From: Mobula hypostoma
Lineage: Eukaryota
Reading direction: 5' to 3'
Length of the DNA stretch: 64,000 nucleotides
Assembly (NCBI RefSeq): GCF_963921235.1
Contig: NC_086097.1
Location: 88,166,001 to 88,230,000, forward strand
Position numbers and translations under genes: made by a program. This document shows, piece by piece, positions 11,690-50,700 of this stretch. The notes beneath the pieces are model-generated. The model was not told the origin of the DNA. It saw only the letters and a list, made by a program, of their open reading frames with translations, and searched no databases. Positions within the stretch are counted from its first letter, which is position 1; every line of letters begins with the position of its first letter.

Positions 11690-12290
11690 TTTCTGTCTCA
11701 CAGCTCCATTGCCCCAGGTTTATTCCTGATCTTGGGTGCCGGCTTTGTGGAGTTTACAAGTTCTCCCTGTGGCCACATCGGATTCTACAGGTTCTTCCTC
11801 TGTTTCAAAGATGTTCCAGTTGGTACGATAGTCAGTTATTGTAAACTACCCCTCAGTTGAGAAGCTTCCTAGGCCCCCCATCCCATGATCCTCTCCCTTC
11901 TCCAGCCTTGTATCCCTTTTGCCAATCAACTTTCCAACTCTTAGCTCCATCCCTCCCCCTCCTGTCTTCTCCTATCATTTCAGATCTCCCCCTCCCCCTC
12001 CCGCTTTCAAATCTCTTACTATCTCTTCTTTCAGTTAGTCCTGACAAAGGGTCCCGGCCCGAAACGTCGACTGTACCTCTTCCTATAGGTGCTGCCTGGC
12101 CTGCTGCATTCCACCAGCATTTTGTGTGTGTTGCCTCAGTTTAGAAGTTTGGAAGGAAAATCAGTTTAGAGTTGATGAACATTCAAGACAGAATAAGTTT
12201 CGGGGATATAATTGGGGTAATTTGAGTGCCGAGATTGCTCTGAGAGCGTCCATAGACTTGATGGGCCAAATAGACTTCCAAATTGTAGGA
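11690..12290 (+). mobile_element. tRNA-derived V-SINE/HE1-like SINE, interrupted at 11865-12133
   Basis: tgtggagtttacaagttctccctgtggcc core, then gttattgtaaactacccct, with a CR1-like tail (gacttgatgggccaaatag). Confidence 0.55.
11865..12133 (+). mobile_element. Penelope-like 3' fragment with a hammerhead-type motif
   Basis: 14-bp TSD cctcagttgagaag (11851-11864) and cctcagtttagaag (12134-12147). Pyrimidine-rich body, then ctgacaaagggtcccggcccgaaacgtcgact. Homologous to the tail of 50145-50700. Confidence 0.7.
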
Positions 12291-12464
12291 TAATATAAAA
12301 CAAGTCTGTAGGGCCACAGCTTAACATTTCATTCAAAGGCAGGCACTTTCACAAATCTGCTATTTTAGCATGGTCAGATCGATTAAAAGTGAGCCCCCAT
12401 TTTACAAGTTTCAAAGCTGGAATCGGGAGCTTCTTCCTTGCTAAGGAGCTCTTAAGATGGATCA

Positions 12465-13065
12465 AATGTCAATGTCAAAAGTGCATATGTTATCAAAGTA
12501 TGTATACCTTTTTTTTCAGCCTGGCATCTACAAAACAACAAAACACAATACTGTATAATCCAAGAAAACTCACACACAACAAAGACTGACAAACATCCAA
12601 TGTGTAAAAGAGGACAAATCATGCAAGTAATAAAAAAAAATACGTATCATATATAGAACATGAGCTGCAGGGTCCCCCAAAGTGAGTCTACAGGCTACGG
12701 AGTCGAGTGAAGCCAATTCAGGAGCCCATTGCTGTGGGGCAACAGCAGCTCTCGAACCTGCTGGTGAGGGACTCGTGACTCCTGCACCTCCAGTCCAATG
12801 GTAGTAGTGAGAAGTGAGAGTGACAGGCCACACGCAGGCAGACAGTGCTGAACATCAGTTCATTTTCCGCTCTGAGGCCTTAAGGCTTTCATCTGGCCTG
12901 ACGTCTGCTTCAGCGTTGGCCGATACATGGGGGCTGACCTAAAGTCTACTATCATTGGCTCCCTCTTGACTGATCTATCAATTGTATTGCTCCTGGACTG
13001 GTATCTCAGCCTCTCCTCATGTAGCTCTGACGGGATAAGTGCGGCAGAAAACAGACGATGTAGAG
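12465..13065 (-). mobile_element. Non-autonomous element with a Rex1/Babar-type 3'UTR
   Basis: Same tail architecture (caaacatccaatgtgtaaaagaggacaaatcatgcaa..aaagtgagtct) joined to a GC-richer non-coding body. Confidence 0.45.
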
Positions 13066-13069
13066 AATG

Positions 13070-13198
13070 AAACACAAAATACTCTGCAGATGCTGGGGTC
13101 AGAGCAAGACTCACAACATGCTGGAGGAACTCAGCAGTTCGGGCAGCATCCGTGGAAACTATCAGTCAACGTTTCGGGCCGGAACCCTTCGTCAGGAC
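13070..13198 (-). mobile_element. Short Penelope-derived fragment
   Basis: aaacacaaaatactctgcagatgctgggg..tgctggaggaactcagcag..gtcaacgtttcgggccggaacccttcgtcagg. Confidence 0.7.
13163..13198 (-). ncRNA. Minimal type-I hammerhead ribozyme motif with intact core
   Basis: Minus strand reads GUC-CUGACGA-A-GGG(UUCCGG)CCC-GAAAC-GUU-GAC: core CUGANGA and GAAA, stem II, palindromic AACGUU as stem III, and a 3-bp stem I. Confidence 0.55.
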
Positions 13199-13479
13199 AG
13201 ATGTTGACAGATGACACAGAGAACAGATGTTGACCAAAAAAAGCACAAGAGACTCAGCAACTCACTGACAGCCGTGAGATGTGTGTGGTTCTCGGTAGTG
13301 TCAAAGCTATTTGTGGTCCAAAGACTAGAGTCCCCATCCTAATTGACAGTCAGGAACGGAGATGAACAGACTAAGGGCTGAATTCAGTTGATGCCTGCCG
13401 GAAGGACTTCTTAGCTGTGACTCTGACCTTGACATGTTTGCTGTTAACTCAGTCCCACCACATTCTACTCAGTTGAGAT

Positions 13480-14880
13480 TTGAGCCCATCCTGATTGACA
13501 AGGTAATGCCTTCGGAGCGGACTGTCCACAATGAAGTTCTATAGTTCTACAGTGAGAATCACTTTCTGTGTATGGGAAGAGGAGGATGTGCCAGGGAACC
13601 ATGGAGGTGCAATAATCATGAACACTTCCAAGACTGATGGCAGTACCGACAGGGAGCTCTCTCTGCTGTCTGATCACTTTGTGAATTCATCCAACTATAG
13701 GCACAGTGGGCATGATCCTCATTGTGTGACAACTTCAGGAGAAAATGCAGGAAGCAGCACCGATCTCTATAAAAGGCCTTTCTAGACCACTAATTATTTT
13801 ACTTCATTGACTAGGAGACACCATGAAGCACCTTCCTCAAATTCAGCTTGTCGCAGAAACATATCTGCATCGGACGTTTGCTTCGTGAAGCATGAATGCC
13901 ATGATCCTAACCAATGGACTTGCAGCAGAGTCAACATACAAGGCTGTGTTATCTCGCCAACACTTCTTGTTCTTTGTCATTGCAATGTTGCACCCCCCCT
14001 TTAACAAACTTTCAAGGGAATGGAGCTGATCTTCAGAATTGATTGGAAACTGTTCAACCAATGGTGCCTATACTCCAGAGCTAAGATTATCTAAGCTAGT
14101 ATGATGTGTACATGCGTGTGCACGTGGAGACTGAATTCCAAGCTTTTGTCAACTTGTTCACTGAAGCATAGGAGAAGATGGACGTTGCAGCGAACATTCA
14201 TAGGTGAAAGTTCTCTGCCAACCTGTATCTGGTGAGGAATATCATCCTTGCAAAACAGATGTTCATGGGGGACTCCTAGACAAGTGTGAATTATTTTGCG
14301 TATCTTGAAAGCTACCTGTCGAGAAAGAGGGCAATGGAATCACCATCATCTTCACTGCATCGACTCGGCCCTTGAAAGATTTAGGAAAAATGTGTATAAA
14401 GATCAAGACCTCAGACCTGGTACAAAACCTACTACAGTGATTCCTACCTGCCTGTGTGCTTTTAGAGTGCTGGGTTACCTACAGCAGGCATGTCAAGGCA
14501 CTGGTAAGATGCCATCAATGCAGTCTACACAAAACCTCCTAAATTCATTGAAAGGATAAATAAACCACTGTCAGTGCTCTCTCTCAGGCCAATGTACCCT
14601 GTATTGAGGCTCTAATTACACTCAGTAAATAGCTCTGGGCAGGACACATAATTTGCTTGCCCAATACCAGGCTTCCTAAACTGCTAATCTGTCCTGTTCT
14701 ATCACAGGATAAAATTATTAACTGGACAGAGGATAGGTATAAAACGTCCTTGAATAAATGCACTATCTCCACTGACTCTTGAGAATATGTGTCTCAGGAT
14801 ACATAATGTGGAGAAAGAGTATTTAGGAAGCTATAGAGAAACTTAATTCCATATATTAGGAAGACATATAGATAAGATGA
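13480..14880 (+). mobile_element. Decayed RTE-clade LINE
   Basis: RT remnants QGCVISPTLL (~13940) and GMELIFRIDWKLFN (~14020), matching RTE motifs GVKQGCVIAPTLF and G..I.YRTDGKLFN. Many stops and frameshifts. Confidence 0.55.
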
Positions 14881-14889
14881 CATTTAGCC

Positions 14890-15445
14890 AGAAAGAATGC
14901 AAAGGAGATTTACAAGGATATTTCTGGACTCGGGACTGAGCTGTGGAACAAAGTTGACCAGGTTAATGACCTTATACATTGGAGCATAGGAGAATGAGGT
15001 GATCTTGCAGAGATTATAAAATCATGAGGACAATAGATATGGTAAATGTTGTAGTCTTTTCCCCAGCGTTGGGGAATAAAGCTCTAGAAAACATGGGCTT
15101 AGGGTGAGAGGGGAGAGATTTAGTAGGAACCTGAGGGGCAAATTTTTCACCCAGAGTTTGATCTGTATATGGAGTGAGCAACAGGGGAAGAGGTTGAGAT
15201 GAGTATATTAACAACATTTAAAGGACACTTGGACAGCTACACGGATAGGATTGGTTTTAGAGCAGGAGTTCCCACTGATTCCTCGGTTAATAGTAGGGGT
15301 CCATTGGCATAAAATAGGTTGGAAACGCCTGTTTTTGAGAGATATGAGGCAAATGCAGACAAGTGAGACTTGCTTAGCAGGGACTCCTGGTCAGGGTAGA
15401 CCAGTGCACCTGAAGGACCTGTTTCCATGCTCTACGTATGACTTG
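14890..15445 (+). mobile_element. CR1 LINE 3' fragment
   Basis: aaaggagatttacaagga..ggagaatgaggtgatctt..ggggcaaatttttcacccagag followed by a CR1 3'UTR. Confidence 0.65.
15263..15331. mobile_element. 69-bp hAT-type MITE inserted in CR1
   Basis: Ends caggagttccca and tggaaacgcctg. 8-bp TSD ttttagag / tttttgag. Confidence 0.6.
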
Positions 15446-16049
15446 ATGATTCAGGTCTATAGGTGCATACTTAACATTTTTAGCCATTTATTTAATTAAG
15501 TGAGATTTTCTAAATGGCAAGGCTTTAATGAGTTAAATAGTGGGCTGTTGGGCAGCGCGATTCATTAGGCCAGAAGTGTCTGTCCGTGCTGTATCACTAA
15601 ATAAATAAAATTCATCTTCAGTCCTAAAGGACTGCTGAAGAAGACCTTCATATTTTTCTGGATATAACTTGAATGTTTGACACAGATTTGTTTTAGAAAA
15701 TTTATTATTGCTTTACACTTTTAGTACAACACATCAAATGGATCAAGAATGATTTACTCATAGCTATCCTATTTGATCCTAGTGTGCAATCTTGTATCTG
15801 AACTAAATTTCTGAGATCCAGCATTTAATAGCAAAGAGATTCACACAGTATTCCTGTACACAAGTAAACCAAAGAAACTCATCTGCTTATTTTTCTTTTA
15901 TTTGTGTAATTGATATTCTGTCAATGTGTGGAAGCTCAAAATGCCTGTAGTTGTCTGTTTGATGGTCTCTCAGGTTATTATAGATACATTTGTTTTCCTA
16001 TACAACAGGGCCATGTCTTTCTCAACATTCATGGTACCATCAGTTCAAT

Positions 16050-16870
16050 ACGTTCTCTTACAATGTGTTAATGCATTATTTCCTGATGAAGCCATGCGTT
16101 TATGAACTCTTTCGAGGTACAAATGTCTCACTGTTCAGTGGCTGCAGGACCCTAGACTGTGGTCCTTCTGCACAAGGCCACTGAGGGGGCTGCACGGAGC
16201 TTCATTTCATCCCTCCGCAGGTACTCCTGCAGCCTGGAGCGTGTCAGTCGGCAGCGTTCACTCACAGGAATTTCCTTTCGTAGGAAAGCCAACAAGTTTT
16301 GTGCTTCTTTTGTCAAGTTGGTGGTCTTCCAGCTTTCCTGAACTTCATCTCGGTATATGAAGAGCCCACAGAGTCTTCTCATATGCAGCTATCAGAACAA
16401 ACCTTCCCTTCCAAACCACTTGGCTAACATGCAGTCAGGAGGTGGTTAATCACCTCATCTGTATTACAGCTGTCTAGAATGTAGTGTGGAATGGTATTCA
16501 GGCTCTAACGCGCATGAATGATCTGATGGGGAGAGCCCCTCTCACTGCCAAGAGAGCTCTTGATGCTTGTTTGTGATTCTGGAGATGACATTGATTTTGA
16601 CAGACTGCTTGGGGAACTATCCCACAGGATCCACCATCTCCTTCACCCTTGGGGTCTGCAGGAAACTGTGCTGACTAGTTGATGGATTTGTAGTGAAAAG
16701 TAATTTAGTTACAGAAACTATTCTCCAAAGGTTAGGTAGTGTAACCAGGTCCAGCTGAAGGGAACATTGCACAGCAATACCCATCCTTCACAGCATCAGG
16801 GACCGATAGAAGCTCCACATATTCTGACAGTGTGTCGGTGTACTCTGGGTCTGTGTACAGCTTGATACAG
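16050..16870 (-). mobile_element. Tx1-clade LINE, ORF2 C-terminus and 3'UTR (decayed)
   Basis: NLLAFLRKEIPVSERCRLTRSRLQEYLRRDEMKLRAA..RTTV* and the SSP.ITNKHQE / VRGALPIRSFMR remnants match Tx1 ORF2 ends. Confidence 0.7.
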
Positions 16871-18140
16871 CTAGTATCTTAACCTAGTCCAAATTGAAGG
16901 CAAATGTTACTGTCTTACTAGTGGATGCAGTAAACCAGATCTTGTGTGACCATTTCACAATCACTCTCGTGACACTGTTTACTGTACATTCAAAGCTTAC
17001 CTGCACTTTTGTTTTAATTTAACTGCAGTCTCATGAAATAGATATTAATACTTGAGTAAAAAATTCACCTTAGTTTTCCTGTGAAGCTTTCTTTTAGGTT
17101 TTTTCTTAAAACTACATCTGAGAGTCTATGGTAAAGTTGCCAAATAACTTGAAAGTAATAGGACAGATGTTTAAATTTCTTATTTAATATCAGGAGTGGT
17201 TTTGGTTCAGTTCATTAAATCCCTGAATTATCAGGCAATTGAGAGTCTCATTTGTAATTTTAAATGTTAACATCTTTGCGATGGAAAAGTTTGTTTTTGT
17301 TGTAATATTGTCATGATTACAAAAGCCTGTGTTCCTAAAGTCAATAAATACTTTAAAAGCCATCTGCTGTGCTTAGGCAAAGTAAAGTTGGGAGCTCAAG
17401 CATATCTGCTTAAATGGAAGGTCTACTCAAAATGCAATTCGCTGGATGGAGTTCCGTCTCCTTGACATCAAAACAATCAACTTGGTCTCATATCTGTCTA
17501 TTATTATCATTTTATCATGTTTTAATTAATGCTCTGTTAAATTCGTTACATCAATACTATGGCTTTCCATCCTCGCTTTGAACCCAGTAATACGTGCCTG
17601 CTTATCCATTGATATTTATGTAAAATTATTTGTTTTATGTTAGGATATGTTGCTTGTTTGGAATTAATTGGTCAGTTAATGTGGCTGTGTTTTTTCCACT
17701 AATAAATGATTAGCAAGATTTTGTATAAAATGTTGTATGACCCCTCAAGCATTTGGCACCCAACCAGAAGTTAATAAGTCGCTTCGTTTCTTGGCACTTA
17801 ATTGCCCCAGTAATTTACATTTAAATGATTAAGCTGTGGTCTATTAAACCTAGTTCAAGGAGCCTGATTTTTCAAACATTGTCAATTTACAGTTAAAATA
17901 GCTTTCTCTTCATACCATTTTTGTGGTGAAATCCAAAACTCATCTGACTTCACTCTTGCTCATTTCTCTAAAACTGTGGAACTTTTTAACCTCTGTTGCA
18001 TCCTGATGTACTTTATAATTCCACAAGACCATTTTCAGGAGTAGCACTTACCTTTGTGCACCAGGTTGCCCACCTTAAAATCCAGGTAATTATCATGCAC
18101 CTTGATGATATAATAAAGTTGCCAACGTTCTGACCTGGAC

Positions 18141-18314
18141 CTCTGTGATCCACAGCCTTAAGGAAGAGGACAGTTCAGTAGCAACCTCACACACAGACAT
18201 ATTTAGGATCTGCACATTCTTCTACTGCAGTCTATAAATCTGCAGATCCTCAATATGTCTGTGTGTGAGGTTCCTACTGAACTGTCCTCTTCCTTAAGGC
18301 TGTGGATCACAGAG
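18141..18314. repeat. Inverted repeat with 74-bp arms (2 mismatches) and a 26-nt loop
   Basis: 18141-18214 is the reverse complement of 18241-18314 except at two positions. Confidence 0.95.
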
Positions 18315-18946
18315 CTCCCTCTGTGAGCCTTTTGGAAGAAGAAATGTGAGCATGTCTCTTCCTGTTTCACGGTGCTGACTCTGGAGCGGAAAATGATCTT
18401 GGAGGATTTGGCAGTGAAAGTTCTCCAATCTGCATACTCCCTTTCTAGTTCCTTAATGTTCTCTGGGCCCAGCAGGTTGACATTCAGCTTCCATGTCCCC
18501 TGCCTGTCTTCTGGTTCTCCTGCAGGTGGCAGGTGGCTCAGAGGAAGCAGTGGTCAGAAGAACAGTGGTGTTGATGGATCTGACTGTGATGGGCTCTGAC
18601 ACGAAGATGAAGTCGATCCGGGAGTGGGCTGAGTAGTCTGATCATGACCAGGGGGGTTGTGGCTGTGCTGCAGGGGTGTTGAAGGCGTCATGCAGCTTAG
18701 CTATTTTAACTGTTTCCATCAGGAGCTGCTGTCCAGCCTGAAGTCTGCACTACCAGATCGTCCAGCTGCATTGATGATGCATTTGAAGTCACTAACCAGA
18801 AGGACTGGCCAGTGTGTCACCAGCAGCAGTGGGAGCTGCTTAGGGCTGGCAGGTCTCTGTGTCTCTCTCAAGGGGTGAGGAGTACACATTTATTAGCCTG
18901 TGTGGAGTGTCTCAGTTCATTCTGTCTGTCATGAGGAGGCCCCCCC

Positions 18947-18974
18947 GCCACACACACACACACACACACACACA
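18947..18974. repeat. (CA)n microsatellite within the Tx1 endonuclease
   Basis: cacacacacacacacacacacacacac. Confidence 0.9.
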
Positions 18975-19539: not shown

Positions 19540-20045
19540 AAACATAACACAAGACATTCTGCAGATGCTGGAGATCCAAATTGACACACACAAGATGCAG
19601 CATAAGCAGCACCTATGGAAATGAATAAACAGTTGAGGTTTCAGGCCGAGACCCTTCTTCACAATTTGAAGGGAAGGGAAGGGGGAGGACAGCAGAATAA
19701 AATGGTGGGGAGATGGTAAGAAGGATAGCTAGTAGTGATAGGTGAAGCCAGGTGGGTGGGAAGGGTAAAGGGCTGGAGAGGAAGGAATCTGATAGGAGAA
19801 GAGAGTGGACCAGAGGAGCAAGGGAAGGAGGAGGGGACCCAGGGGGAGGTGATAGGTAGGTGAGAAGTAATAAGAGGCCAGAGTGGGGAATAGAAGAAGA
19901 GAGAAAGGAGAATTTTTTTTTAACCAAATGGAATACAAAGTGCTGCTCCTCCACCCAGAGGGTGACTGCATCATGGCACAAGAGAAGGTTTTGGACCAAT
20001 ATGTCAGAACGGGAATGAGAATTGGAATTAAAATGGTACAACTCT
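19540..20045 (-). mobile_element. Penelope-like 3' fragment inserted in Tx1 ORF1
   Basis: Minus strand HFNSNSHSRSDILVQNLLLCHDAVTLWVEEQHFVFHL (GIY-YIG C-terminus), then a pyrimidine tract and a decayed hammerhead motif (gtgaagaagggtctcggcctgaaac). Confidence 0.7.
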
Positions 20046-22111
20046 TGGTTTCCTGGAACTGGTATTGATTGGGCACTGTGCTGCTCACAATCTCCCTGGC
20101 TGTGAGTTGGTCAGCAGAAAATTCATTCCCTATCCGTATTTACCGGTTGGCTTTCTTCTACTTTTTCCTCTTCTGTCTGGCGCTTCCTCTGCCTGCTTCT
20201 TTGGTTTCCCATGCTTGTTTCATCCTCAGTGAGCAGAGGTTGCAGGTGTCTATTTGCTTTTCTGCTCTTTTCTCCCCATTACTTTTATTCTTGGCAGACC
20301 ATTGTCTCTTGGATGGTGTCTCCTGTGACGACTTCTTCATCCCTCCATTCTTCTCCTTTCCCTCCTCATGGACTCCTTCCCGTCTTGCAGGGGGGCCAGG
20401 AGGTTGAAAGCTTGAGGTGGTCCGCTTTTTCTCTGTCACATCTCATTTTCTGCGTTGGCCAAAGCCTTTGTGCTGGTGGTGTGAACACCATTTGTGTGGG
20501 CATTATCAGTGCTAGCCCCCCCTCATATTGCCTGTGGGTAGGTAGCAGCACATCAGGGCAGGCTTTGTCAAGGTGGCCTGCCTCTCTACACAGGTTGCTG
20601 TGGTTGCTTTCCTGGCACTCCTTTGTCTGGTGGCCTTCCTGTCTGCAGTTCTTACAGATCACTGTACTGCACTGGGCCGTGACATGTGCAGATTTACTGC
20701 AGTCGAGGCACAGCCTGGGTTGACTGGCATACATCATGTTACTGCGGTTCCTTCCACTGGCAAACACCTGAGGGACGGTGGATGATGGAATGATTTGAAT
20801 CCACCCTCAGCTTGACCTTCATCTGGTGCTTGCTTCTCCAGATCCCGAACGTATTTTTGATGTCCATACAGTTTCCTGCTCCCTCAACGTAATGGGCCAG
20901 GAAGGTGAGGATGTCCATAGTAGTTTAAACATGTGCACTGTGATCACATGCTCCTTCTGGGTGGTAATGGTCAGGAGTCTTCGTTTGTGGCAGCGGCAGT
21001 TCATTCCCTTTCTTCCGAATTCTGAAGGATCTTCTGCCATCCTGCCGCGTACTTGAAGGGGATGTCGAAGAAGCCGTTACCTGTGAAGTCTTGGACATAG
21101 TAGATGTCCCTCCCATCTAACCCGCAGCCCTTCAGAAGGGCCTTCCAAATGAAGCAGTCCCTGTTGAAGAGATTTCTATCCCTGAGATTCTTCAGTGCAA
21201 CTCAGCTGGTGTTTCAGATCCCAGGTCCTCCAGTCATTGGCAGATGCAGCTATTTTAACTGGTCTGATTGCTGGGAAAGGGTGTTGAATTAGTTTCTTAA
21301 TCATCATGAGGTTTCGCCCAAATATCAGCAGGTCAAGCTCTTATTGGCCCATTGATCACACTGAGTCCGTCTTCTGTCCTCAATGTCAGCAACCTCAAAG
21401 ATCCACCAAGATGCTACACTTGATCTTCGCGAAAAGGAAATCAAATTTATGTTTCATGGTAATAAACTGTCCAATGTCACAGGATTTTCAGAGTAAAGTA
21501 ATTGCTCAGCTTTTTGTACTGTTTGGTAAAACTCACTGTTGGACGGATAAGCATCAAGATGTTTATGCACTTGAGTTTGTTGAAGCTGTTTATGAATCAG
21601 TTTCCAGCAATTGTTTTGTCTGGTCAGAGATTTCACAGATAGATTTATTCTGCAGTTGACCCTGTTTATAATCTTGTTGGTGCATAAAGACATTAACCAA
21701 TAGTGTTAAAAGTTACATTTCTTTAATTCCTTTTCTCATTCTTTTTTCTTCTACTATTTCTCCATGTCTGCCCAACCATTCATTCAGATGATCATCAATG
21801 ATTGTTAGTGGAATCTTGAAGGGCTAAATCATCAATGATCCATTCAAAGCATCTTGCGCAATCTAAATGCTACAAAATTATTTTCTTCCCTTCTCGCAAG
21901 CTTGGTAGTGCCTTACATTGTGTGCTTTAGTATTTAACTAAGGATGTCAGTTCTCACAGAGAAGTGTATAACATAGATTGGTAGCACGTAGTTAAGTGAG
22001 AGGAATTTGGAAAAAAATGAAATTTTCAATGCAAGGCATTCCTTAATCAGGAATCAGTCGAAGTGAGTGAGAACAGATGAGAGATGAATGGGAACTGATT
22101 TATGGAATCAG

Positions 22112-23490: not shown

Positions 23491-23941
23491 AGATTTTATA
23501 TTACACTGCAGCTAACAGTAAAAGGAGAGACTCCAATATGAAGGTGGCAGAATACGCTGAGAGTGATTAGTAAGCCAGATGGGACTCTGCGACTCAAAAC
23601 CAAAGGCATAGAATGAAAAGGTTGGCAAGTTGCATTGACTGTCTACAAACAGCGATTAAGCCATAACAAAAGTTTTGCAGCCTTGTTACTTTATAGTAAC
23701 AAGGATGTGTACAGCCTAGAGAAGTAGAAAAGGTAGAAAGGTAGAATGATAGGTGATTTCAGCTGTATAGTTAAAAGTTGGGCTTGTTCTCTTGGAGTAA
23801 AGAAAGTTAAAAGGAGATTTGCTACAAGTATGTAATTTAAGATTGAATATTAGATGAAAGGAAGCTGTTCCCATCAAGTGAATGGTTCATAGACTAATGC
23901 ACTCAATTGTAATGTGTAGACAAAGGAGTAAGTGAAGAAGA

Positions 23942-24024
23942 GATACACACAAAATGCTGGTGGAACGCAGCAGGTCAGGCAGCATCTATAGGAAGAGGTA
24001 CAAACGACACTTCGGGCCGAGATG
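23942..24024 (-). mobile_element. Very short Penelope-derived insert within a CR1 remnant (~23700-24110)
   Basis: TSD gtgaagaaga at 23932-23941 and 24025-24034. Body acacaaaatgctggtggaacgcagcaggtcaggcagcatc is truncated inside the hammerhead motif. Confidence 0.6.
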
Positions 24025-24468
24025 TGAAGAAGAACTTTAGGCAAGAAGTACTTGGAACCCAGAATATATTGTCTGTAGGAATCTTGGAAACTAAACCAGT
24101 CGGTAGCTCTGGAGGAGAACTGGATAGGCATGGGATGGAATACCTTTTTGGTATTTGGGGAGAGAACCTGGGGATTTGTACTGATATGATTTCATGACTT
24201 AAGGTCAATTTAAACTTTGGTCTTTACAGCTTCCTTCTGTGCCATGGTAGCTCTATGACTGCAACTCTTTGATGAGTAGTAAGAGCTTCTGTTGCTGACA
24301 TATGATTGTAGATTAGTAGGTCAAGAACTTGTACCTAAGGGACTGCAGTACAAATTAACTGTGCACCAGTCTTTAATTCTTGCAGACATTGTGTTCTGAA
24401 AAGCATATGCTAAGCTGCTACGTGGAACTAATGGTCTCCTGCACATTTAGTTCACCATCATTGACTAT

Positions 24469-26673
24469 GGCAAGCACTGAAATTGCACCCCTGTCCAAAC
24501 ATCTGACACCCATCTTTTAGATAACTTTACCATAATATCAGTTCAAAAATACAAGTCAAGCTTGTTAATCTTTTAATTAACAAATTATGGCACCACATGA
24601 AAATTATAACTGCTCCTTCCTTGCTTTCACTGATGCAAATTGGACTATGATGTGATCAAAGTCAGGTTTTTTTGTTTCTTCTCTCTCTACACTCAGCAGA
24701 GCAAGATCACAGAGTCTGCCCTGACCCATGGAGGCTCGCAAATATGAAAGTGTTAGTTTTAACTTGCTGAATGATCTCTCACAGCTGGCGATGGAAGCAG
24801 TGATCGTTAGCATGACCTGAATAGCAATGCAAAGATTGGGGAAGACGCTGTCATCTCCATACTGAACAACAAATTCAAGAAGCTCTTCATGTCTTGATAT
24901 TTTCATGTTGACCCACCTTGACAGCAGCATTCTGCAATCCAAAATTTCTTCATATAGTTGCTGTCCGTCAACATCAGAGCTGTACAATTTACCCAAATTT
25001 TTGCACTTCTTCTTTTGGTCTTTACTGTTGGTGCCATAACACAGTCCCATCTGTAGACAATCTTGTAGCTCCATTTCATCCTTCTCTAGCTGTTTCAAGA
25101 TGTCTTCAACCAAGCTGTCAGCATCCTTCTGGCTTATCTGGATAAAACCAGCGAAGGACTCTCTAACACGGACTGTTTTCCTCTCAAAATCAACTTCCAC
25201 ATACCTCGCTACTTCTGATACCTGCTCACAGTGTGCCTGATCAGGAGCCGAGTCGAACATGAGACCATAATACTTGGCTTTACGAATGCTTCTCAGTAAA
25301 CTGTGGCGAATAGTGGATGCCATCATGTGAATGAATTCGTTCTGGACACCTGGTGAAAGATAGGACGTGGATCCAGGATGACTTCAAATAAGTGAGGTGT
25401 TCTTTTATGACAGGGTCAAAGATGGCCAGTAGTTTCAGTAAGCCAAGGAATTTTCCCACATTGGAGTCATCGTCTAGTTGAGGTAACTCCCTGTGTCCTC
25501 GCAAAGCAAGGTTCTGAGTCACAAGGAATTTTATGCAGTGAAGGATTCTCGTCAAGATATCACACCACTTCTGCTTTTCCTTCTCAATCTGTGACTGAAA
25601 TACCGCGTCAATAACTCCTCTGTTTCCAGCTAAATTTCTTTCCATTTCTTTCCACTGTGTGAAGCATTCCCGATGATTCTTGGCATTTTCATGAACACTA
25701 ATCCTTTCAGGTGCTTTCCACTGGTTGAATCCACTTTCCTGCTCCAGTGAGAATTGATGGTCTGACTGGGAATAGAGAAGATAACAGATTCAAAATGCAG
25801 ACTTTTTAGAAGGAGAATAGACCAGCCATGAGTGAGTCACTTCTTCACCACGACCATTTCCCAATTTCCTCTTGAACCAAGTTTTGTTCATTGAGCGGTT
25901 ATTTGTTGGTAGGAAAGGCCCCTCACTCTTCTGGAAATACTTTGAACCCAGCTTTATTATTTCTGTTCTCAACACGTCAGGCAGAATTGCTTTTCCAGTA
26001 TCCTTGTCGGACTTCAGAAGTCCAGTGTCATGCTGTTCAATCACTTCTGGTATGACAGTTCGAGGCTCTTTGACACCATCTGGTTCACTAGGTTCAGTGT
26101 CGTCAGGTTCAATCTCATCAGGTAAAATCTCGTCAATAAACTCAACATCACCACCACCACCATCGTCTTCCCCTCCTGTCATGTCCACATTCTCTGTGGC
26201 AGCCTTACTCTTAATCCAACAGGCTTGGATTTATCTGACTTGACTTCCTCCTCGGCTTGTGATGCATCTATACTTGATCCACCTTTGGATTCTAACAAAC
26301 TTGTAGCAGGTGCAGGCGACTCCATGGAACATGTCAAACTACTTGTTTCGGGCTTTTCAAAGAAGGGCCTGAAGAACTTGCTCGACTTCTTGGCTTCCTC
26401 CGCCTCCAACTTTCGTCTTTTCCATCCTTCAGCTCCACTTTTCTTCTTCGTGAAGAAACGTTTCATGGTCTTCTTACACAATGCTCTGAAATAAGGCCAT
26501 TCTAGTGCTTCTCACGCATGATAATCAAAGACAAATCATACATCTGAAGAAAATTCTTTTTTCACTATCCGGGGATGACTTGTCTGACTTTAACAGAAAC
26601 TGCTCAGTGGCGCCCCCCTTCAATTGGCGCCCTGGGCATGTGCCATACCTGCCATACCTTAGATACGCCACTG
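24469..26673 (-). mobile_element. hAT DNA transposon (TTF zinc finger / DUF4371 / hAT dimerisation, ZMYM1-like), frameshifted and internally deleted
   Basis: ORF pieces 26481-26179, 26188-25790 (SWLVYSPSKKSAF), 25645-25280 (LALRGH) and 25326-24604 (YYGLMFDSAPDQAHCEQ..FPNL..ASCERSFSKLKL..RL..LALLSVE). One terminus cagtggcgtatcta lies at 26673 on the minus strand; the other terminus is not seen. Confidence 0.85.
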
Positions 26674-27820: not shown

Positions 27821-27829
27821 ATATTCCAC

Positions 27830-28880: not shown

Positions 28881-28884
28881 CATA

Positions 28885-31449: not shown

Positions 31450-31645
31450 CAGTCTTATTCCCCTCTGCTCACCACCTTATTCTGGGTTCTTTCCCCTTCC
31501 TTTCCGGTCCTGATGAAGGGGCTCAACCCGAAACATCGATTCTTTATTCCTTTCCATTGATGTTGCCTGACCTGCTGAGTTCCTCCAGCATATTTTGAGT
31601 TACTCTGGATTTCCAACATCTGCAGAAAGCCTTGTGTTTATAAAG
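31450..31645 (+). mobile_element. Penelope-derived 3' fragment
   Basis: ccccttcctttccggtcctgatgaagggg..gatgttgcctgacctgctgagttcctccagc. Confidence 0.7.
31506..31541 (+). ncRNA. Minimal type-I hammerhead ribozyme motif (core intact, stem III mutated)
   Basis: GGUC-CUGAUGA-A-GGG(GCUCAA)CCC-GAAAC-AUC-GAUU. Confidence 0.5.
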
Positions 31646-33472: not shown

Positions 33473-34159
33473 TATATATTACAGAAATGTCTGGAAGTCC
33501 TACTAGCCTATTTATCCTATGCCTCTCAATTGCTGAACCTTCTCTACCTAATCCAGTGATTTCCTTGGAATCACAGGCCAATTTAAGGGTACAGGGTGAA
33601 ATCTTAGAAATTTCTTTGATTAAGGAGCATCAAAGATCCAAAATATTAACTGTTTCTTTCTCCACAGGTGCTGCCTGACGTGCTGGGTGTTTCCAGCATT
33701 TGCAGTCTTTTACTTTTCAAATCTTTTAAACTCAGTCAGAAGTATGTTCTGCCTCAGTGGTTTTACTGAGAGATTTTTAAATTTACCCTGCTCTGCAGTT
33801 CAACCTTTTCTGTATCCTTGGCCTTGCCCTCGCTCTTGGCACTTTTGACTGGGATTCACAAATGACATTTTCTTTAAATTACATATCCTTTAATATCCTT
33901 TATTTGAGAAACTTTTTATTTTGACAGTGTCAAAGTTTCAGGTCATTGACCTGAAATATTTATTCTGTCTCTCTGTATTTGCTGCCTCGCATGCCCAGAT
34001 TTTCTGACATTTTCTAATTTTGTTTTTGACTTCCAGTATCTGCAAATGTTTACTTTAATTCATTTTATTTTTAAAAGTCTGATTCATAGCAGTTCCCACA
34101 CATTGCTGCTTCTCCAGTTTTTGTTTTTCTCTCCCACTCCTGACTCTTTTTTTCCAAAA

Positions 34160-38150: not shown

Positions 38151-38434
38151 CATGTGGATAATCAGTGGATAGGGGATCATAGTCAATATGTCAATATCTC
38201 CTTTTGACCCTAGCCACCATTAATGCCACCTTCATGGATCATGGATCTGTATTGCTAGATCCCTCAGTACCCAACCTTTCACTACCCTTTTTTGTCCTGC
38301 CTAAGTGCAACAGCTCATTTTCTTTTGCCATTTTTAGCTCTTTTCCCCAGCTAGTGCAGATTTCTCTCTCCACAGATGCTACCTAAATTGCTGAGTGTTT
38401 CCAGCATTCCTTATTTTTGTTTCAGAGATCAGTA

Positions 38435-38612: not shown

Positions 38613-38619
38613 CACAAAA

Positions 38620-40822: not shown

Positions 40823-41004
40823 TATACTGATTCCATTTGTAACTTCTGTTTGGAAAAACAATTTTCTGTTGATTTACCTACTGACAATTTTATATTCTCT
40901 AGTTCTGAACACTCCAAGTTTCTGTTTATCCTAACAAAGCCTATAAAACAAAGACCTCTTACTATGTCACCCTTAATCTGTTGAGACATAAATCTTGCCT
41001 TCAC

Positions 41005-42435: not shown

Positions 42436-42898
42436 TTCTATTAGTAGCTATCTATTTATTTATCTATCATAAGTTTTACAAATCTCTTAATTAACACAAA
42501 ATCTGTATCACAATTCTTGAACAGCATTCCAAAACTTGCACTTTCTTTACTAAGATTGGTGCCCAACTTGTTCATAATACTCCAGCTGAGGCTAAGCCAT
42601 TGTCTCATGCAGGTTTTGGTATAACTCCCTGATTCTTGCACTATATTTAGAAAACTTCTGGTACTTTATCAACTGAAGAGCAAAATAAAATTGCAGATGC
42701 TAGAAACCTGACATTAAATTAAAAAATGCTGGAAGCACTTAGTAGGTGGGGTGAAGTGCAGCCAGAACTAATCAGCTTCTCACTAATCAAACTCCTGGCA
42801 CTTGAAAGGAAGATTAATGGACATACACTGTCAAACTGAAAACATCTGCAGAAAAGTTGCAGGTTTGTCCATAAGTGCTGCCAACCTTGTTTTTCATA

Positions 42899-44099: not shown

Positions 44100-46630
44100 A
44101 AGTGAGTTTTATATAAGCCAATAAAAAGAAGGGAGATGCCAGCGGGGTGGCCATTGTTGGAGTGGGCCAAGGTTAGAGTGGGAGGCTTTGGTTCAACAGT
44201 CTTGAGCGAGAACAGGCTTGGACAAGCACAGGTTCTAAGTAAGTTTCCAGTTAATTTTTAAATTTTTTTTTAACATAGCTAATGCACTGAGAATGGGTCC
44301 AGGGTTTGAGGTATATTCTTTGTGTGAGAGGTGGGAACTCGGGGAGACTGGTAGTCTCCCTGGTTGCACTTCATGCAGATGTAGCTTCGAGCTGCAACTT
44401 ACTAATTTGGCAGAGGGATGGAAACCATAGGGCTGAGGATGGCGCATTTGGTATACAAGTGATGCAGTATGTAGTGAGACTGAGGAAGGATAGACAGATG
44501 AGAGAGCAAAATTGCAGCCAGTGGGATGAGTTGAAGTGTAACATCGGGGCAAAAACAAAAAGGGTGATGAATACAGGACTAAAGGTGTTACATTTAAATG
44601 TACATAGTACAGTACATGGATTAAGTTAAATGATCTTGTTATGTAGTTAGAGATTGGATGGTATGGCATTGTGGACATCCTGGAGTCATAGCTGAAAGAA
44701 GATTATAGTTGGGAGCTTAACATCCAAGGGCACACATCGTATTGAAAGGATAGGGAAGCAGGCAGAGGGGGTGGGATAGCTCTGGTTTTTAAAAAAGTGA
44801 CATCAAATCCCTAGAAAGAGGTGACATAGGATTGAAAGATATAGACTCCTTATGGGTAGAGTTCAGAAACTACAAGTGTTTTTTTTTAAAAAAAGCAACT
44901 TGATGGGGATTATATACAGGCCTCTAAACAATAGCTAGGAAATTACAATGGAAGGTGGGAGGTACAAAAGGCATGTGAAAAGGGCAATGTTATGATAGAC
45001 CTGGGGGATTTCAACATGCTACCAGATAGGGAAAATCAGGTTGATGCTGGATCCTAAGAAAGGGAGTTTGTAGGTTGCCTATAAACTGCCTTTGTAGTGC
45101 AGTTTGTGGTTGAGCCCACTAGGGAAAAAGCAATTCTGGATTGGGTGCTGTGTAATGAACCAGATTTGATTAAGGAGTTTAAGGTAAAGGAACATTTCAG
45201 AGGCAGTGATCATAATATGATAAAATTCACCCTGCGGTTTTAGAGGGAGAAGATAAAATCAGGCATATCAGTATTACAGTGGAGTAAAGGGAAACGGTGG
45301 ACAAATTTATTAAGTTTTGTGTTGGTGTTTACTGTGGGATACACTAGCAGTATACCAGAAATTTGAAAGCTGGGCAGAAATAAGTGTAGTTGCTACCAAT
45401 CAGGTGGCGCCTGGGAAGTTGAAAGTCAATGTGGTTTCCTTAAGGGGAAATCTTGCCTGACAAATTTGTTGGAATTCTTTGAGGAAATAACAGGCAGAAT
45501 AGACAAAGGAAAGTCAGTGTACGTTGTTTTCTTAGATTTCCAGAAGGCCCTTGACAAGTTGCTACATATGAGGCTGCTAAACAAGATAAGAGCTTATGGT
45601 ATTACAGAAAAGGTACTAGCATGGATAGAAGATTGGCTGACTGGCAAGAGGCAAAGAGTGGGAATAAACCTTTTCTGGTTGGCTGCTGGTAGAGGTGTTA
45701 CACAAACTTTGTTGCTGGGACCACTTCTTTTCACTTTGTATGTCAGTGATTTGTATGACGGGTTTGAGGGTTTTGTGGTGGAGGGTGAAGGGAGTCTGCA
45801 GAAGGACCTAGACAGATTGGGAGAATGGGTAAAGTGGCAGATGGAATATAGTGTTGAGAAGTGTATGATTGTTCACTTTGGTAGCAGGAAAAAGATGTAG
45901 AATATTTTCTGATCAGGGAGAAAATACAAAAATCAGAAATGCAGTATCTTGGGAATCCATTCTCTAATGGTTAATCACAGGTTGAAGCAGTGGTGAGGAA
46001 TGCAAATGCAATGTTAGTATTCCTTTTGAGAGGAGTAGAATATAAGAGTAACACTGTAATGCTGTGGCATTATAAGGCACTGGTGAGGTCTCACTTGAAG
46101 AATTGTGAGCAGTTTTGGGTGCCTTGTATAAGAAAGGATGTGCTGACATTTTAGAGACTCCAGAGGAAGTTCACAAGAATGATTCAGGGATGAAAGGGTT
46201 AGCACATGAGCATTTGATGGCTCTAGGCCTATACCTGCTGGAGTTTAGAAGAATTAAGGTCATTTAAATCTATTGAATTCTGAAAGGCAAAGATTAAGTG
46301 GATGTGGAGATGATGTTTCACGACCAGAGGACACAGCTTCCGCATTGGGGGATGTCCACTTAGAATGGAGTTGAGGAGGAATTTCTTTAGCCAGAGGGCA
46401 GTGAATCTCTGTTACTCATTGCCACATATAGCTGTCGAGGCCAAGTCATTGGGATATTTAAAGTGGAAGTTGATAGGTTCTTGATTAGTCAGGGTGCATC
46501 AGAGATTACATGGAGAATGTAGAAGAGTAGGGTTGAGAGTAGGGTTTATATTATATCAGCCATAATGAAATGGTGGAGCAGACTCAATGGGCTGAGTGGC
46601 CTAATTTTGCTATTATTTCTCTTGGTCTCA
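44100..46630 (+). mobile_element. Decayed CR1 LINE spanning the 5' region, endonuclease, RT and 3'UTR, with deletions
   Basis: LKVLHLNVHS (endonuclease start), GDFN, GSDHNMI and LEFFEEITGRIDKGKSVYVVFLDFQKALDK; 3' tail actcaatgggctgagtggcctaatt. Confidence 0.85.
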
Positions 46631-46679
46631 GTGATTGTCTTACATTGTTTTCTGTTAGCTGCTGCGTCTTCTTAGGCAG

Positions 46680-46870
46680 AGCCTTGGGATTCACTTCTAC
46701 TTTGGTTTTGCAGGTGCTGAAGTGGCTAATGAGGCCTTTTTGGGAGTGCAGACCCTTACGCTGATCTTGCACTGAGTGATCAAGTCAGATGAAGTGGTGT
46801 GCTCTTTCACTCTCGTATAAGACGTCTGTGTATCCTGATGTTGCATGACCTTAAGATTCCCAATATCATC
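46680..46870 (-). mobile_element. RTE-clade LINE 3' end remnant
   Basis: GLISHFSTCK resembles the RTE C-terminal GLISHLRTH motif. Confidence 0.4.
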
Positions 46871-48324
46871 CCAGATGATGTCAATATCTGACAAAGCTTT
46901 CGCAGCAAAACTCAAATCAGCTAAGCTAATATTTATCCTTTTGGGTAAAGTATAAGCGTCAGAAATCTTGATAAAGATTAAAAATGTTTCAAGAAAGGAA
47001 CCATTGCCATGAGTTTATAGCAATTATAATTTGACATGTTTTAAAGTAATCTGCTTTTTTTTTTGCAACTTTTGCAGATGCCTCCCATTCTTTCTTCCGA
47101 GTCTTCAAGGATTAATTTTTTTTAGATAGGTTTGCTCTTTATGAAGTGCTGAATGCAAAGGATGATAATGAAAGATGCAGTGATCTTCAAGTACTGCGGA
47201 GTAACAATCAAATGATGGATGAAAGTTGTTAAAATGCAACACACTAAAATTATGAAAACAATAAAGAAGGCAGTGAGTGTGTGATGCTGCAGGTTGGAAA
47301 GATAAATTTAGATTAAGATTAAAACAGAAATAGAAATATTTTGGGTGGCTATGTGTGGTCAGTTTGGCTCAGTTGGCAATACGTGCCTCTATGTTGGGAA
47401 GTTACGCCAACAAGCTTTGCTGCAGTAATCCAGTTTCACTTTTCACTGCAGCACAATGCTGCATTTTCAGTGTTGTGGAACTGGATGCTATTCTGTAATA
47501 ATTAAAGTATGCTGAAGTGGATTTGTGTGAGGAATACTTGTCAGTTTCTACCAGATTATCCTCATGTTGACTGAATGCTATGTTTCAAATGTGGTATGTG
47601 TCTTTGGTCTTTGTCTGTGTGCTTGCCTAATACAGGTATTACATCCTTAATGTGAATGTTACTATCTGGTCTCCCACTGCAGTGGGAGCTCTCAAAAGAA
47701 CATGTACTTTAGGAACAAATACTTCAAGTCAAAGGCCTAATGTGTGGCATATTTTTCTTTGGTTGATGGAAACAGGTGCAATGCATCTCTGAGTGATGTG
47801 ATATCTAGGTCACCGAGGGTAGGATTTATTGTCATTGTTGGGAGAGGGGAGGAGACAATCTATCTCCATCGACAAAGAATGCAGTTTTCCCTTACAGTAG
47901 CCTTGAGAAAGCTGGTTTCAACTTCCCACAGCAGGGACTTGATAAATTACAAGCCCTTTAATTTATGTTGGGGCAGATATGTTGCAGGGTACATAAGCCA
48001 AGCATTTGCAATAGAATATTTCTGTAGTGAATTCAGTCATGCATTGCTTACTAATTGATGTCACTGCTGAGCACACAGAAGCTTTTTTTTAATTTGGGGG
48101 ATGTGGGTGTGACAGGCTGAGCTAACATTTCATTGCCCTTGAAAAGGTGATGGTGATCTGCTGCAGTTGTGAATGTGAAGGTATATATATAATACTGATA
48201 AGGAGAGAGTACCAGGATTTTGCTCCAATGATGGTCATTATGCATTGCAACTGTTCAGCAATCTTCCACAGTTTGCGTGGTGTTGTTGCTGACAATGCAA
48301 ATAGAATCCTAAATGCCTGAGAAA

Positions 48325-48965
48325 TTCTACGTTCCTGGGTGTCTGAGAATCTATCCTGAGCCTAACATATTGACGCAATTACCGAGAAGGCACGACAGCT
48401 GCTATATTTCATTAGGAGCTTCAGGAGAATTAATATGTCACCAAAAACACTCTCAAATTTCTACAGATATACTTTGGAGAGCATTCTAACTTGCTGCACC
48501 ATCATCTGGTATGGACGGGCCGCTGCACAGGATTGAAAAAAGCTGCAGAAAGTTGTAAACTTGGCCAGCTCCTTCATGGGTACTATCCTCCCCTATATTG
48601 AGGCCATCCTCAAAAAACAATGCTTCAAAAAAGGTGGCATCAATCATTAAGGACCCCCATTACCCAGGACATGCCCTCTTCTCATTGGTACCATCAAGGA
48701 GGAGGTACGGTAGACTGAAGACACACACTCAATGATTCAGAAACAGCTTCTTCCCCTCCACCATCAGATTTCTGAAGGGACAATGAACCCACGAACACTT
48801 CCTCAGTATTTTCATCCCTCTCTTTTTGCACTCTTTATTTAATTTACATTTTTATATATGCTTATTGTAATTTATATTTTTTATTATGTATTGCAGTGTA
48901 CTGCTGCCACAAACATGAAATTTCACAATGTATGTCAGTGATATTAAACCTGCTTCTGATTCTGC
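48325..48965 (+). mobile_element. Rex1/Babar-type LINE 3' fragment
   Basis: gagagcattctaacttgctgc..aaggacccccattacccaggacatgccctcttc..; same family as 40170-40822. Confidence 0.75.
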
Positions 48966-50144
48966 CTTTGAAAATTTTCAAGGCGGTGGTATATAGACTA
49001 ATGATAAGTAAGGCTGTGAAAGGATTCTGAGGGCAGACAGAAACGTAGAGTTGAGTTTTCAATCCGACCATCAACATTCTGTTGAATGGTGAATCGGTCT
49101 CAAGGAGCCAAGTGGCCTACTCCTGGTTCTAATTTGTGTACACATCAAACAGATATTCTCTATCTCTTCATTACAATATGATCTTTAAAATCTTTGAATT
49201 GCGCGAATATACTTGCAGCTAATTTATAATTTTAATGAATCATTAATCTCTCAATGGAGCTTTTATTACTTTGATACATTTGGACCCACAGGGGAATCAG
49301 CAGGTGGCAGATGGTGGATTTACTGAGTCGGAAAGGAGATGAAGAAGCCCTACAATAACATTAAGAATATCCTTGCTACACTTTGTCTGAGGAACATTTA
49401 GGTTTCCCCTCCAGAATCGTTCCTCATTTATCTGCCTTGCATTTCCTGTCACAGCCAGATTGTTATTTTAGATAATATTTCTTGAAAATAATTTTAAATG
49501 GGATGATATTTGCACTACGAGGCAATAAATGAAAAATAAAAGATCAAGAATAGGAAAGGGAATCAAACAGCACAGGAGGACATTTGCACCATCTGGTTCC
49601 TTGACATAATGATCCAACTGTCTGACTCTAGAGCTGCTTTGGACAAGTTTAAGATCATTATTCTCAACCCAGTCAAGATATTGAGCCCATCTTCTAGGCT
49701 AGTGCTCAGGGAATGCATGTAACAACTTTCTGATGACGTGTTAATCCGAGAGCCCATGTATTTGTTTGAGTGGGCACCAGCATTTCCTTTCTGTTACACT
49801 GTTTCAATCAGCATAATTAGCAGATCATCTGTTTGTTATCACTTTGCTCCTTTTGTCATCTTTTTCTGCAGAGAATGGCTGTGGCTTATTCCACACTGTG
49901 ACGGCAACCACATTTCACTGCTTGCAGGTGATTTTGGATATCCTGAGTCTGTGAAATATTGGTTTGTTATTCTCTTTTCATCATTCATGTCATTACACCT
50001 TCCTCTTGAAATGTTTGCTATTTTGGAAGCTTCTTGATAGTGCAGATTTCATCTTTGCAGTGTTTACAGCTGGAGGAATATGTGAAGCAATCATTATTTT
50101 CACATCAATCTCGGTAAATATGTGTCTCAGCACTCAAAGCACAG

Positions 50145-50700
50145 TAATCGCATCGTCAAGCACCTTTGCACCACCCACCACAAGCGGGATTTCCCGGTGG
50201 CCAAACACTTTAATTCTGATTCTCATTCCCTTTCCGACGTGTCGGCCCATGGCTTCCTCTTGTGCCAAGATGAGGCCATTCTTACGGTTGAGGAGCAACA
50301 CCTTGTATTCCATCTGGGTAGCCTCCAGCCTGATGGTATGAATATTGATTTCTTCTTTCTGTAAATAAGTTCTCCCATTCCCCGCTCCTCTGTTTCCCAC
50401 TCTGTCCTTTCACTTCTTCTCACCTGCCTGTTACTTTCCCCTGGGTCCTCTCCTCCTTCCCTTTCTCACATGGTCCACTGTCCTCTCCTATCAAAGACCT
50501 CCTTCTCCAGCCCTTGAACTTTCCCACCTACTTGGTAATCTTTTCCCTCTTTTTTTCCCCCTCCACCTTTTTTTTAAATCAGGTATCTTTCTCCTTCCTT
50601 CTCAGTCCTGAAGAAGGATCTCAGGCCAATGTTGACTATCTATTCATTTCCATAGATGCTGCCTGAGCTGCTATGTTCCTCCAGCATTTTGTGTGTTGCA
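50145..50700 (+). mobile_element. Penelope-like element 3' fragment (GIY-YIG C-terminus plus tail)
   Basis: NRIVKHL..DFPVAKHFNSDSHSLSDVSAHG..EEQHLVFHLGSLQPDGMNIDF, then a pyrimidine tract and cagtcctgaagaagg.. (hammerhead motif with GAAA lost). Confidence 0.75.

Follow-up and report, generated by a model that had tools for sequence, protein, structure and literature searches.

Minimal hammerheads of Penelope-like elements

Penelope-like elements (PLEs) carry minimal type-I hammerhead ribozymes (min-HHRs) in their pseudo-LTRs, and in fishes they are reported from the Xena, Poseidon and Neptune elements (Cervera and De la Pena 2014, PMC4209133). The minimal PLE hammerheads described in the literature do not cleave as monomers, and the Poseidon PLE of Anolis carolinensis inserts without homology to its target (Frangieh et al. 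2024, PMC11167929). A literature search found no description of the present PLE hammerhead family in sharks or rays. Here we describe six related motif copies in the window, the whole 64,000-nt stretch of DNA that was analysed. The copies are very probably truncated 3' ends of a high-copy PLE, likely of the Neptune clade, lying in a likely RGS6-like intron, and their hammerhead motifs, mutated or partial, are likely inert.

Host gene and likely intron context

The strand of the host gene is set by a single exon, which was detected by a splice-site screen, the composition screen for host exons having overlooked it among transposon ORFs.

3460..3564, +: RGS6-like host exon, the first coding exon, with coding sequence at 3481-3564 (residues 1-28) and a GT donor at 3565

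The product of 3481-3564 is identical to P0165 at 21 of 28 residues (pairwise E 6e-13), and a PDB search with these 28 amino acids returned no match. No later RGS6 exon was found in the window by tblastn, which places the next one outside it. Because all six copies lie 3' of the 3481-3564 exon and the window holds no further exon, the rest of the window is taken to be intronic; it likely represents a long intron of an RGS6-like gene whose end is predicted to lie beyond the window, in keeping with the intronic location proposed in the first-pass annotation. No homolog was found for a minus-strand ORF at 2661-2852, and a literature search on RGS6 gene structure retrieved nothing.

Six copies and the state of their motifs

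A blastn search seeded with 12030-12130 (E 7e-26 to 3e-5) recovered all six copies at the positions and strands assigned to them earlier; each is named below by its motif position.

11868..12133, + (sense): copy 12036, a 5'-truncated PLE end of 266 nt with a pyrimidine-rich 3' UTR-like part, a hammerhead relic and the short 3' end
12036..12073, +: hammerhead relic of 12036, G8>A (C3-A8 mismatch), with GUC-GACUG, the substrate half, intact
11851..11867, +: left TSD of 12036, 17 nt, with 2 mismatches to the right copy
12134..12150, +: right TSD of 12036
13070..13198, - (antisense): copy 13163, an insertion of ~125 nt running from the 5' margin of stem I through a 35-nt tail; no clear TSD
13163..13200, -: hammerhead of 13163, the best preserved, with both boxes, stem II, the ACGU palindrome and U17
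19545..20083, - (antisense): copy 19630, a PLE 3' end with an endonuclease C-terminal remnant (19925-20083), 3' UTR, hammerhead and tail
19630-19667, -: dead hammerhead of 19630, C3>G and G16.2>C
23932..24033, - (antisense): copy 24005 with flanks, an 82-nt insertion (23942-24023) that starts inside stem II and lacks the CUGANGA box
23932-23941 and 24024-24033: TSD of 24005, an exact 10 nt
31454..31632, + (sense): copy 31506, a truncated PLE end with hammerhead and tail
31505-31542, +: hammerhead of 31506, both boxes intact, stem II of 3 bp, G16.2>A (palindrome lost)
50125..50700, + (sense): copy 50603, a PLE 3' end with an endonuclease C-terminal remnant (50125-50361), 3' UTR, hammerhead and the short 3' end
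50603-50638, +: dead hammerhead of 50603, GAAA box lost

The consensus proposed by the first-pass annotation was recovered from a five-copy alignment, and none of the six single copies contains it whole. Its assignment to the minimal type-I class, with a design suited to dimers, holds in that the five-copy consensus has the published layout: both core boxes (C3UGANGA9, G12AAA) are present in type-I order, an extra base follows A9, and the 10.1-11.1 pair is G-C in four copies and G-U in one. The helix III loop is absent, and two of the five aligned copies, 12036 and 13163, have the ACGU palindrome, as does the majority sequence of the loose ends in run X13, where the GAAAC-GUC-GACUG half is the majority reading of ~1,000 contigs from other copies. 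An ATG 3' of the motif is a candidate ORF start, at which two copies read GTG.

Individually, both core boxes are intact in two of the six copies, and only 13163, antisense to the host gene, combines them with the palindrome; stem I of this copy has 3 bp followed by a mismatch, its outer bases deriving from the flank. All three sense copies (12036, 31506, 50603) are damaged. The change in 19630, C3G, abolishes a PLE hammerhead in vitro (PMC11167929). Since U17 and a CAU triplet both feature in family consensuses of published min-HHRs, neither 13163 nor 31506 is certainly dead. The suggestion that the repeat seeds introns with potential self-cleaving RNA is weak at best, given that the sole copy with core and palindrome is antisense, the three sense copies are damaged and published minimal PLE hammerheads are inactive as monomers. 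Copies are divided three sense to three antisense, or six to four when older relics are included, which is uninformative on strand bias.

A structural min-hammerhead descriptor found two sites (31510+ and 13195-), against a mean of 0.005 and a maximum of 1 in 200 dinucleotide shuffles. The Rfam check suggested earlier yielded no hammerhead family at E<=1; its six rows were chance miRNA-like hairpins, and no tRNA, 5S or 7SL-type match was among them. Covariation in helices I and II scored 0.211, a value reached in 223 of 500 shuffles, with five copies being too few for a test; 84% of stem cells still pair in the five-copy alignment. Single-copy folding z-scores were unremarkable for all nine pieces (-1.15 to 0.76), and the CpG excess was weak, 9 of 37 columns accounting for 10 of 27 substitutions.

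A pattern scan for outside homologs gave none in viral contigs; two candidates in metagenome contigs were rejected as bacterial chance matches without blastn similarity to the window. In run X17, presumed to be RNA, 21 of 30 bins were covered, nine unique-flank bins had zero depth, and contigs carried unspliced sequence upstream of stem I; as contigs of unknown tissue origin, these data are uninformative on transcription or cleavage of the locus.

Four older relics of PLE ends without the motif were found in the window with nhmmer.

33635..33708, +: old remnant of a related PLE end with no recognisable hammerhead (E 7e-10)
33948..34046, +: older relic with a 5-bp stem-II-like hairpin of different sequence (E 0.0065; best control match E 0.39)
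38366..38408, +: older relic, confined to the region 3' of the motif (E 2e-5)
42692..42750, -: older relic, only the tail part (E 0.0057)

Penelope-like origin

The Penelope-derived origin proposed earlier is supported by the endonuclease remnants, the min-HHR match and the optional tail. As had been noticed, two copies (19630 and 50603) lie 3' of endonuclease C-terminal remnants on the same strand as the hammerhead. Remnant 50125-50361 is identical to P0006 at 42 of 77 residues, and remnant 19925-20083 has 22 of 53 identical residues. These relatives were found by exhaustive protein search, a word-index protein search with the remnant having given none; the closest are ray and skate proteins, the five that were checked bearing the names of stingrays and one skate. 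The window remnants have no Pfam match of their own, and P0006, P0022 and P0053 give weak matches to Pfam GIY-YIG that fall short of the curated cut-off (E 0.001-0.003). P0004 combines a PLE RT C-terminus, a CX3CxxC linker and a GIY-YIG motif, and a CX2-5CxxC zinc-finger linker between RT and endonuclease is found in the close relatives P0004, P0006 and P0022, the window remnants being truncated before it. No RT remnant was found in the window. The source element is likely a high-copy PLE of the Neptune clade, its clade and tandem structure being deduced from the proteins of relatives; Nematis also has a Neptune-type zinc-finger linker.

The abundance asserted by the first-pass annotation was confirmed by the contig pile-up of one DNA run, from which 94,397 contigs align to 1.8 kb, nearly all on repeats; summed depth is 5.5-6.0 million on repeats and ~10 in unique flanks, which is not a copy number.

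Insertion structure and proposed mechanism

The 3' ends fall into two classes ~35 nt apart, three copies ending at the short point and three with a tail, and the 5' ends differ in all six, 82 to ~575 nt upstream. Flanking TSDs, earlier attributed to the short copies, stand for 12036 and 24005 (two of six); for 13163, 19630, 31506 and 50603 only short matches at chance level were found. In a control, none of 3000 random pairs reached 17 nt with 2 mismatches or an exact 10 nt, and among pyrimidine-rich pairs 10 nt was reached in 13 of 3000. The empty orthologous site of 12036 was found in two other organisms, where X13 and X9 contigs join across, and that of 13163 in X13 (18 nt there, 142 in the window). 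The empty sites confirm both as insertions. Both copies are absent at the orthologous sites examined and so lack the cross-species conservation expected of a domesticated intronic hammerhead; 12036, lacking in two other organisms, is not conserved.

Because the 5' ends are variable and longer copies extend into the endonuclease ORF, the copies are read as 5'-truncated insertions of an autonomous element. In the intact element, the motif would lie in the pseudo-LTR and, judging from published work, would cleave 3' of GUC solely in double-hammerhead form, with the ACGU of two copies making up helix III, probably with the assistance of the element's own protein. Insertion may proceed by target-primed reverse transcription starting at either of two set positions, ~85 and ~120 nt beyond stem II, and stopping early at variable points, which would yield copies of 82 to ~575 nt; as the motif lies close to where copying starts, nearly every copy would retain it. 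Inserted copies would then decay neutrally, in part by losing CpGs within the core and at paired positions.

Alternative interpretations

The first-pass annotation had also considered a SINE-like family, and the short copies could in principle form a non-autonomous, ribozyme-headed SINE-like or retrozyme-like family of their own, mobilised by a PLE protein. In favour, the empty site places the start of 13163 at the 5' border of stem I, both 12036 and 24005 are short with flanking TSDs, and animal retrozymes, found also in the one cartilaginous fish covered, are traced to PLE pLTRs in a 2026 preprint (bioRxiv 10.64898/2026.07.22.740005). However, the six 5' ends are all different and none lies at the cleavage site, no tandem array of the unit is present in the window, no tRNA gene was found, 24005 is without a catalytic box, and the short copies do not share one sequence subgroup, 24005 being 90% like 12036 and ~75% like 50603. 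We consider such a family very unlikely; unfixed 5' ends, the lack of a tRNA head and longer copies that reach the endonuclease ORF speak for truncated PLE ends instead. The hammerhead appearance might also be incidental, the stretch serving as a splice or priming signal of the element and not as a ribozyme even when intact. Both the stem-I AG and another AG 3' of the motif are preceded by pyrimidine tracts and rank, in several copies, within the top 0.5-2.5% of window AGs by a crude matrix, and in the anole PLE insertion in vitro is unimpaired by hammerhead mutants and no RNA-seq ends fall at the cut site (PMC11167929). Yet every hammerhead position is in register in the consensus, the class covaries across families in published work, C3G/G8C rescues the anole element (PMC11167929), and dual use is possible, as in Drosophila virilis, where a published intron ends at helix I; the probability of this reading is close to negligible.

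The damaged sense copies could complement each other within one pre-mRNA, the intact enzyme half of 31506 acting with the intact GUC substrate half of 12036 (or the GUU half of 50603) to cut the RGS6 intron and affect expression. Both 31506 and 12036 lie on the host strand and form 5/5 stem-I and 2/2 stem-III pairs on paper, and functional intronic ribozymes are known from RECK-type hammerheads (PMC6155905) and CPEB3. Against this, the two copies are 19.5 kb apart and only 7 intermolecular pairs would hold the active site; the double-hammerhead fold has -9.0 kcal/mol, whereas the two monomers together score -19.2 and the best dimer -24.0; even perfect min-HHR dimers cut poorly in published work; the anole PLE hammerhead requires the element's protein (PMC11167929); and 12036 is missing from two other organisms. 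Cleavage of this intron in trans is therefore extremely improbable. If it occurred, it would give transposon debris a new way of acting on the pre-mRNA of the host. A broader version, also highly improbable, would have individually broken sense copies in long ray introns assemble split hammerheads (as 31506 with 12036), perhaps chaperoned by PLE protein, so that a network of half-ribozymes nicks introns and intact sense cores are depleted genome-wide.

Comparison with known systems

As truncated PLE ends, the copies resemble the min-HHRs of PLE pseudo-LTRs (PMC4209133) in type-I topology, the lack of a helix III loop, the palindromic ACGU, a helix I of 4-5 bp and the predominance of single truncated copies genome-wide. 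The published consensus is matched point by point in the extra base after A9, G10.1-C11.1, palindromic 15.2-16.2 and a U-rich upstream region; helix II here is short (4 bp with a 4-nt loop), in contrast, and the window copies are damaged. The portion of that alignment examined contains no cartilaginous fish. With the Anolis Poseidon PLE (PMC11167929) the locus shares a hammerhead ~100 nt upstream of two reverse-transcription start points, an optional tail, 30-40 nt there and ~35 nt here, and insertion that needs no target homology, whereas the 3' ends here are UG-rich instead of lying in an AC-rich stem-loop, the linker of the endonuclease relatives is of Neptune type, and no ORF start is apparent at stem II.

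Animal non-LTR retrozymes (bioRxiv 10.64898/2026.07.22.740005) are likewise PLE-derived and non-coding, with a type-I hammerhead and some dispersed monomers, but their defining tandem units with a full hammerhead are absent from the window. The amniote type-I hammerheads of RECK and DTNB (PMC6155905) are also intronic and probably of retroelement origin; they are conserved across a class, whereas the window copies are minimal, carry mutations and, in at least two cases, are missing from related organisms. With this locus the known class of PLE hammerheads is extended to a ray-like genome, in which its abundance is very high, and the finding is otherwise of little significance; such a genome is suited to asking whether introns purge intact sense cores and whether minimal hammerheads cut in vivo.

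Detection and Penelope-like origin of the family

A blastn search of the window with the 12030-12130 segment as query recovered all five other copies named in the first-pass annotation (E 7e-26 to 3e-5), and a profile built from the six detected four additional, older relics (E 7e-10 to 0.0065; top match on the reversed sequence, E 0.39). Alignment of five copies reproduced the proposed consensus, and the same 3′ half of the motif is shown by the majority of loose ends in public sequencing run X13 (1,020 contigs from other copies), with one CpG-type change apiece in the majorities of runs X2 and X9. The two-box pattern occurs 6 times in the window against 0.92 expected, family members providing two of these occurrences; a stricter descriptor including the stems finds 2 sites (shuffle mean 0.005), one with the palindrome and neither with palindrome plus C17. 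The Rfam scan suggested as a check reported no hammerhead family in the window.

Remnants of the Penelope-like element (PLE) endonuclease C-terminus lie, as initially described, before two copies:

50125-50361, plus strand: endonuclease remnant, same strand as hammerhead 50603
19925-20083, minus strand: endonuclease remnant, same strand as hammerhead 19630

The remnants themselves gave zero Pfam matches. An exhaustive protein search returned 161 relatives at E<=0.001, the five checked for source carrying stingray or skate names. Among the 10 relatives listed, P0004 combines a reverse transcriptase (RT) C-terminus, a CX3CxxC linker and a GIY-YIG motif, and P0006, P0014, P0022 and P0053 have Pfam GIY-YIG matches below cut-off. 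Nematis is a nematode clade. Since a CX3CxxC-type linker marks Neptune and Nematis (10.1101/2021.04.23.441226), the window's PLE likely belongs, on its relatives' sequences, to Neptune. The endonuclease tail also occurs in frame within five host-protein gene models (P0002, P0003, P0008, P0010, P0022: ATP synthase c-like, 7TM receptor, NYAP, a stingray RECQL5 isoform and a skate DUF4518 protein), possibly through exonisation or as an annotation artefact.

Insertion anatomy and copy number

Copies 12036, 24005 and 50603 end at a UG-rich point ~85 nt beyond stem II, and 13163, 19630 and 31506 end ~35 nt farther on, which fits the 30-40 nt tail described as optional in PLEs and traced to two RT start sites (10.1101/2021.04.23.441226; PMC11167929). 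The copies measure 82, ~125, ~180, 266, ~540 and ~575 nt, with 5′ ends that all differ; they do not qualify as SINEs, and the suggested SINE-like family is very unlikely. Target-site duplications, claimed for the short copies, were found at two of the six, 12036 (17 nt, 2 mismatches) and 24005 (10 nt, exact); random control pairs gave 0/3000, and pyrimidine-rich pairs 13/3000 for the 10-mer.

Four public runs were placed on 11700-13500, which includes two of the six copies. Contigs from two other organisms join 11850-11852 straight to 12134-12136, an empty site lacking 283 nt, equal to element 12036 plus one duplication. At 13163, one of these organisms has 18 nt against 142 in the window, and this empty orthologous site sets the 5′ end (13196-13198) where stem I begins on its upstream side. 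All four junctions are spanned with zero differences by run X2, which may derive from the same source as the window. The 94,397 X2 contigs on the stretch have a summed depth ~5 x 10^5 times that of the unique flanks, which is not itself a copy number; family copy number in these data is very high.

Host gene context

Apart from transposon ORFs, one host exon was found, within a CpG-rich, promoter-like stretch:

2500-3600: CpG-rich stretch
3460-3564, plus strand: first coding exon of an RGS6-like gene, ending at a GT donor
2875-2986, minus strand: strong-scoring exon candidate (acceptor 9.1, donor 8.1)

The RGS6-like exon encodes 28 residues, 21 identical to the N-terminus of an RGS6-like protein from a bamboo shark; the database E is only 0.006, and the match spans residue 1 to the donor. 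Because this is the sole host exon and no later residues of that protein map to the window, we infer that all six copies lie within one intron of >60 kb, in agreement with the intronic location first proposed. Copies 12036, 31506 and 50603 are sense to the host, and 13163, 19630 and 24005 antisense; 13163 is the sole copy with core and palindrome. The minus-strand candidate suggests part of a divergent or antisense transcript; no homolog of the nearby minus-strand ORF was found.

Two acceptor-like AGs flank the motif in copies 12036, 50603, 19630 and 33653, one at or adjoining stem I after a pyrimidine tract, like the Drosophila virilis Penelope intron, and another ~15 nt beyond the motif. Those of sense copies could act as cryptic splice acceptors.

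Other elements in the window

Transposon ORFs comprise hAT, L1 and RT-bearing LINEs, accompanied by several repeats:

9651-9866: tandem repeat, 51-nt unit, 4.2 copies, 88% matches; one reading translated, no Pfam match
18137-18318: hairpin of 182 nt, nearly perfect, its 91-nt arms being 91% complementary; likely a LINE-fragment fold-back; adjoins ORF 18203-18553, minus strand, which lacks a Pfam match
24604-26511, minus strand: broken hAT transposase in several frames (Pfam Dimer_Tnp_hAT, DUF4371)
51444-53606, plus strand: L1-type element, CpG-rich, probably young (345-aa ORF1, ORF2 endonuclease part)
58963-59216: inverted repeat (122-nt arms, 10-nt spacer), resembling a fold-back of a DNA transposon, where the transposase-like, CpG-rich stretch 58495-59025 ends

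State of the copies and cleavage potential

State of the six motif copies, named by position
12036, plus: G8>A; rest near consensus
13163, minus: both boxes and ACGU present; U at 17; stem I 3 bp, then mismatch
19630, minus: C3>G and G16.2>C; stem I disrupted
24005, minus: starts inside stem II; CUGANGA absent
31506, plus: both boxes present; stem II 3 bp; G16.2>A
50603, plus: GAAA box lost

C3G and G8C each abolish activity of the anole PLE hammerhead (PMC11167929); by analogy, given the C3-G8 pair, G8>A in 12036 would do likewise. Copies 13163 and 31506 are not callable dead by sequence alone, because U17 and CAU both occur in published family consensuses (PMC4209133, supplement). In the five-copy alignment, stem pairs are retained in 84% of 45 cells, and covariation does not rise above shuffles, 223/500 of which score as high; a small set of decayed copies from a single master would be expected to look like this. 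CpG columns (9/37) take 10/27 substitutions, a weak excess.

Minimal PLE hammerheads are described, in PMC4209133 and the review PMC6765202, as inactive as monomers and of low activity as dimers. The anole hammerhead depends on the element's protein, and RNA ends did not map to its site (PMC11167929). Double-hammerhead homodimer folds of 12036, 13163 and 31506 reach -16.7, -10.1 and -2.0 kcal/mol, whereas the most stable dimers reach -28.4, -24.9 and -23.9. These values carry little weight, since junctions are penalised by the energy model and tertiary contacts are left out of it. Assembly of a 31506 enzyme half with a 12036 substrate half, cutting host pre-mRNA, is highly improbable: although this is the sole same-strand, intact-core pairing among 24 to form all 7 pairs, it folds at -9.0 versus -19.2 kcal/mol for the monomers, and 19.5 kb separates the two copies.

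Relation to known hammerhead classes

With no tandem units in the window, and with copies 12036 and 13163 missing from orthologous sites elsewhere, the window copies belong neither to the retrozymes nor to the conserved intronic hammerheads (PMC6155905). Retrozymes are reported in one chondrichthyan in a 2026 preprint (bioRxiv 10.64898/2026.07.22.740005). We found no published account of this PLE hammerhead family in cartilaginous fish, which the 2026 preprint's supplements may cover. The family consensus has the sequence layout of PLE minimal hammerheads and, by analogy, the motif would work like the dimer-type minimal hammerhead in the PLE pseudo-LTR.
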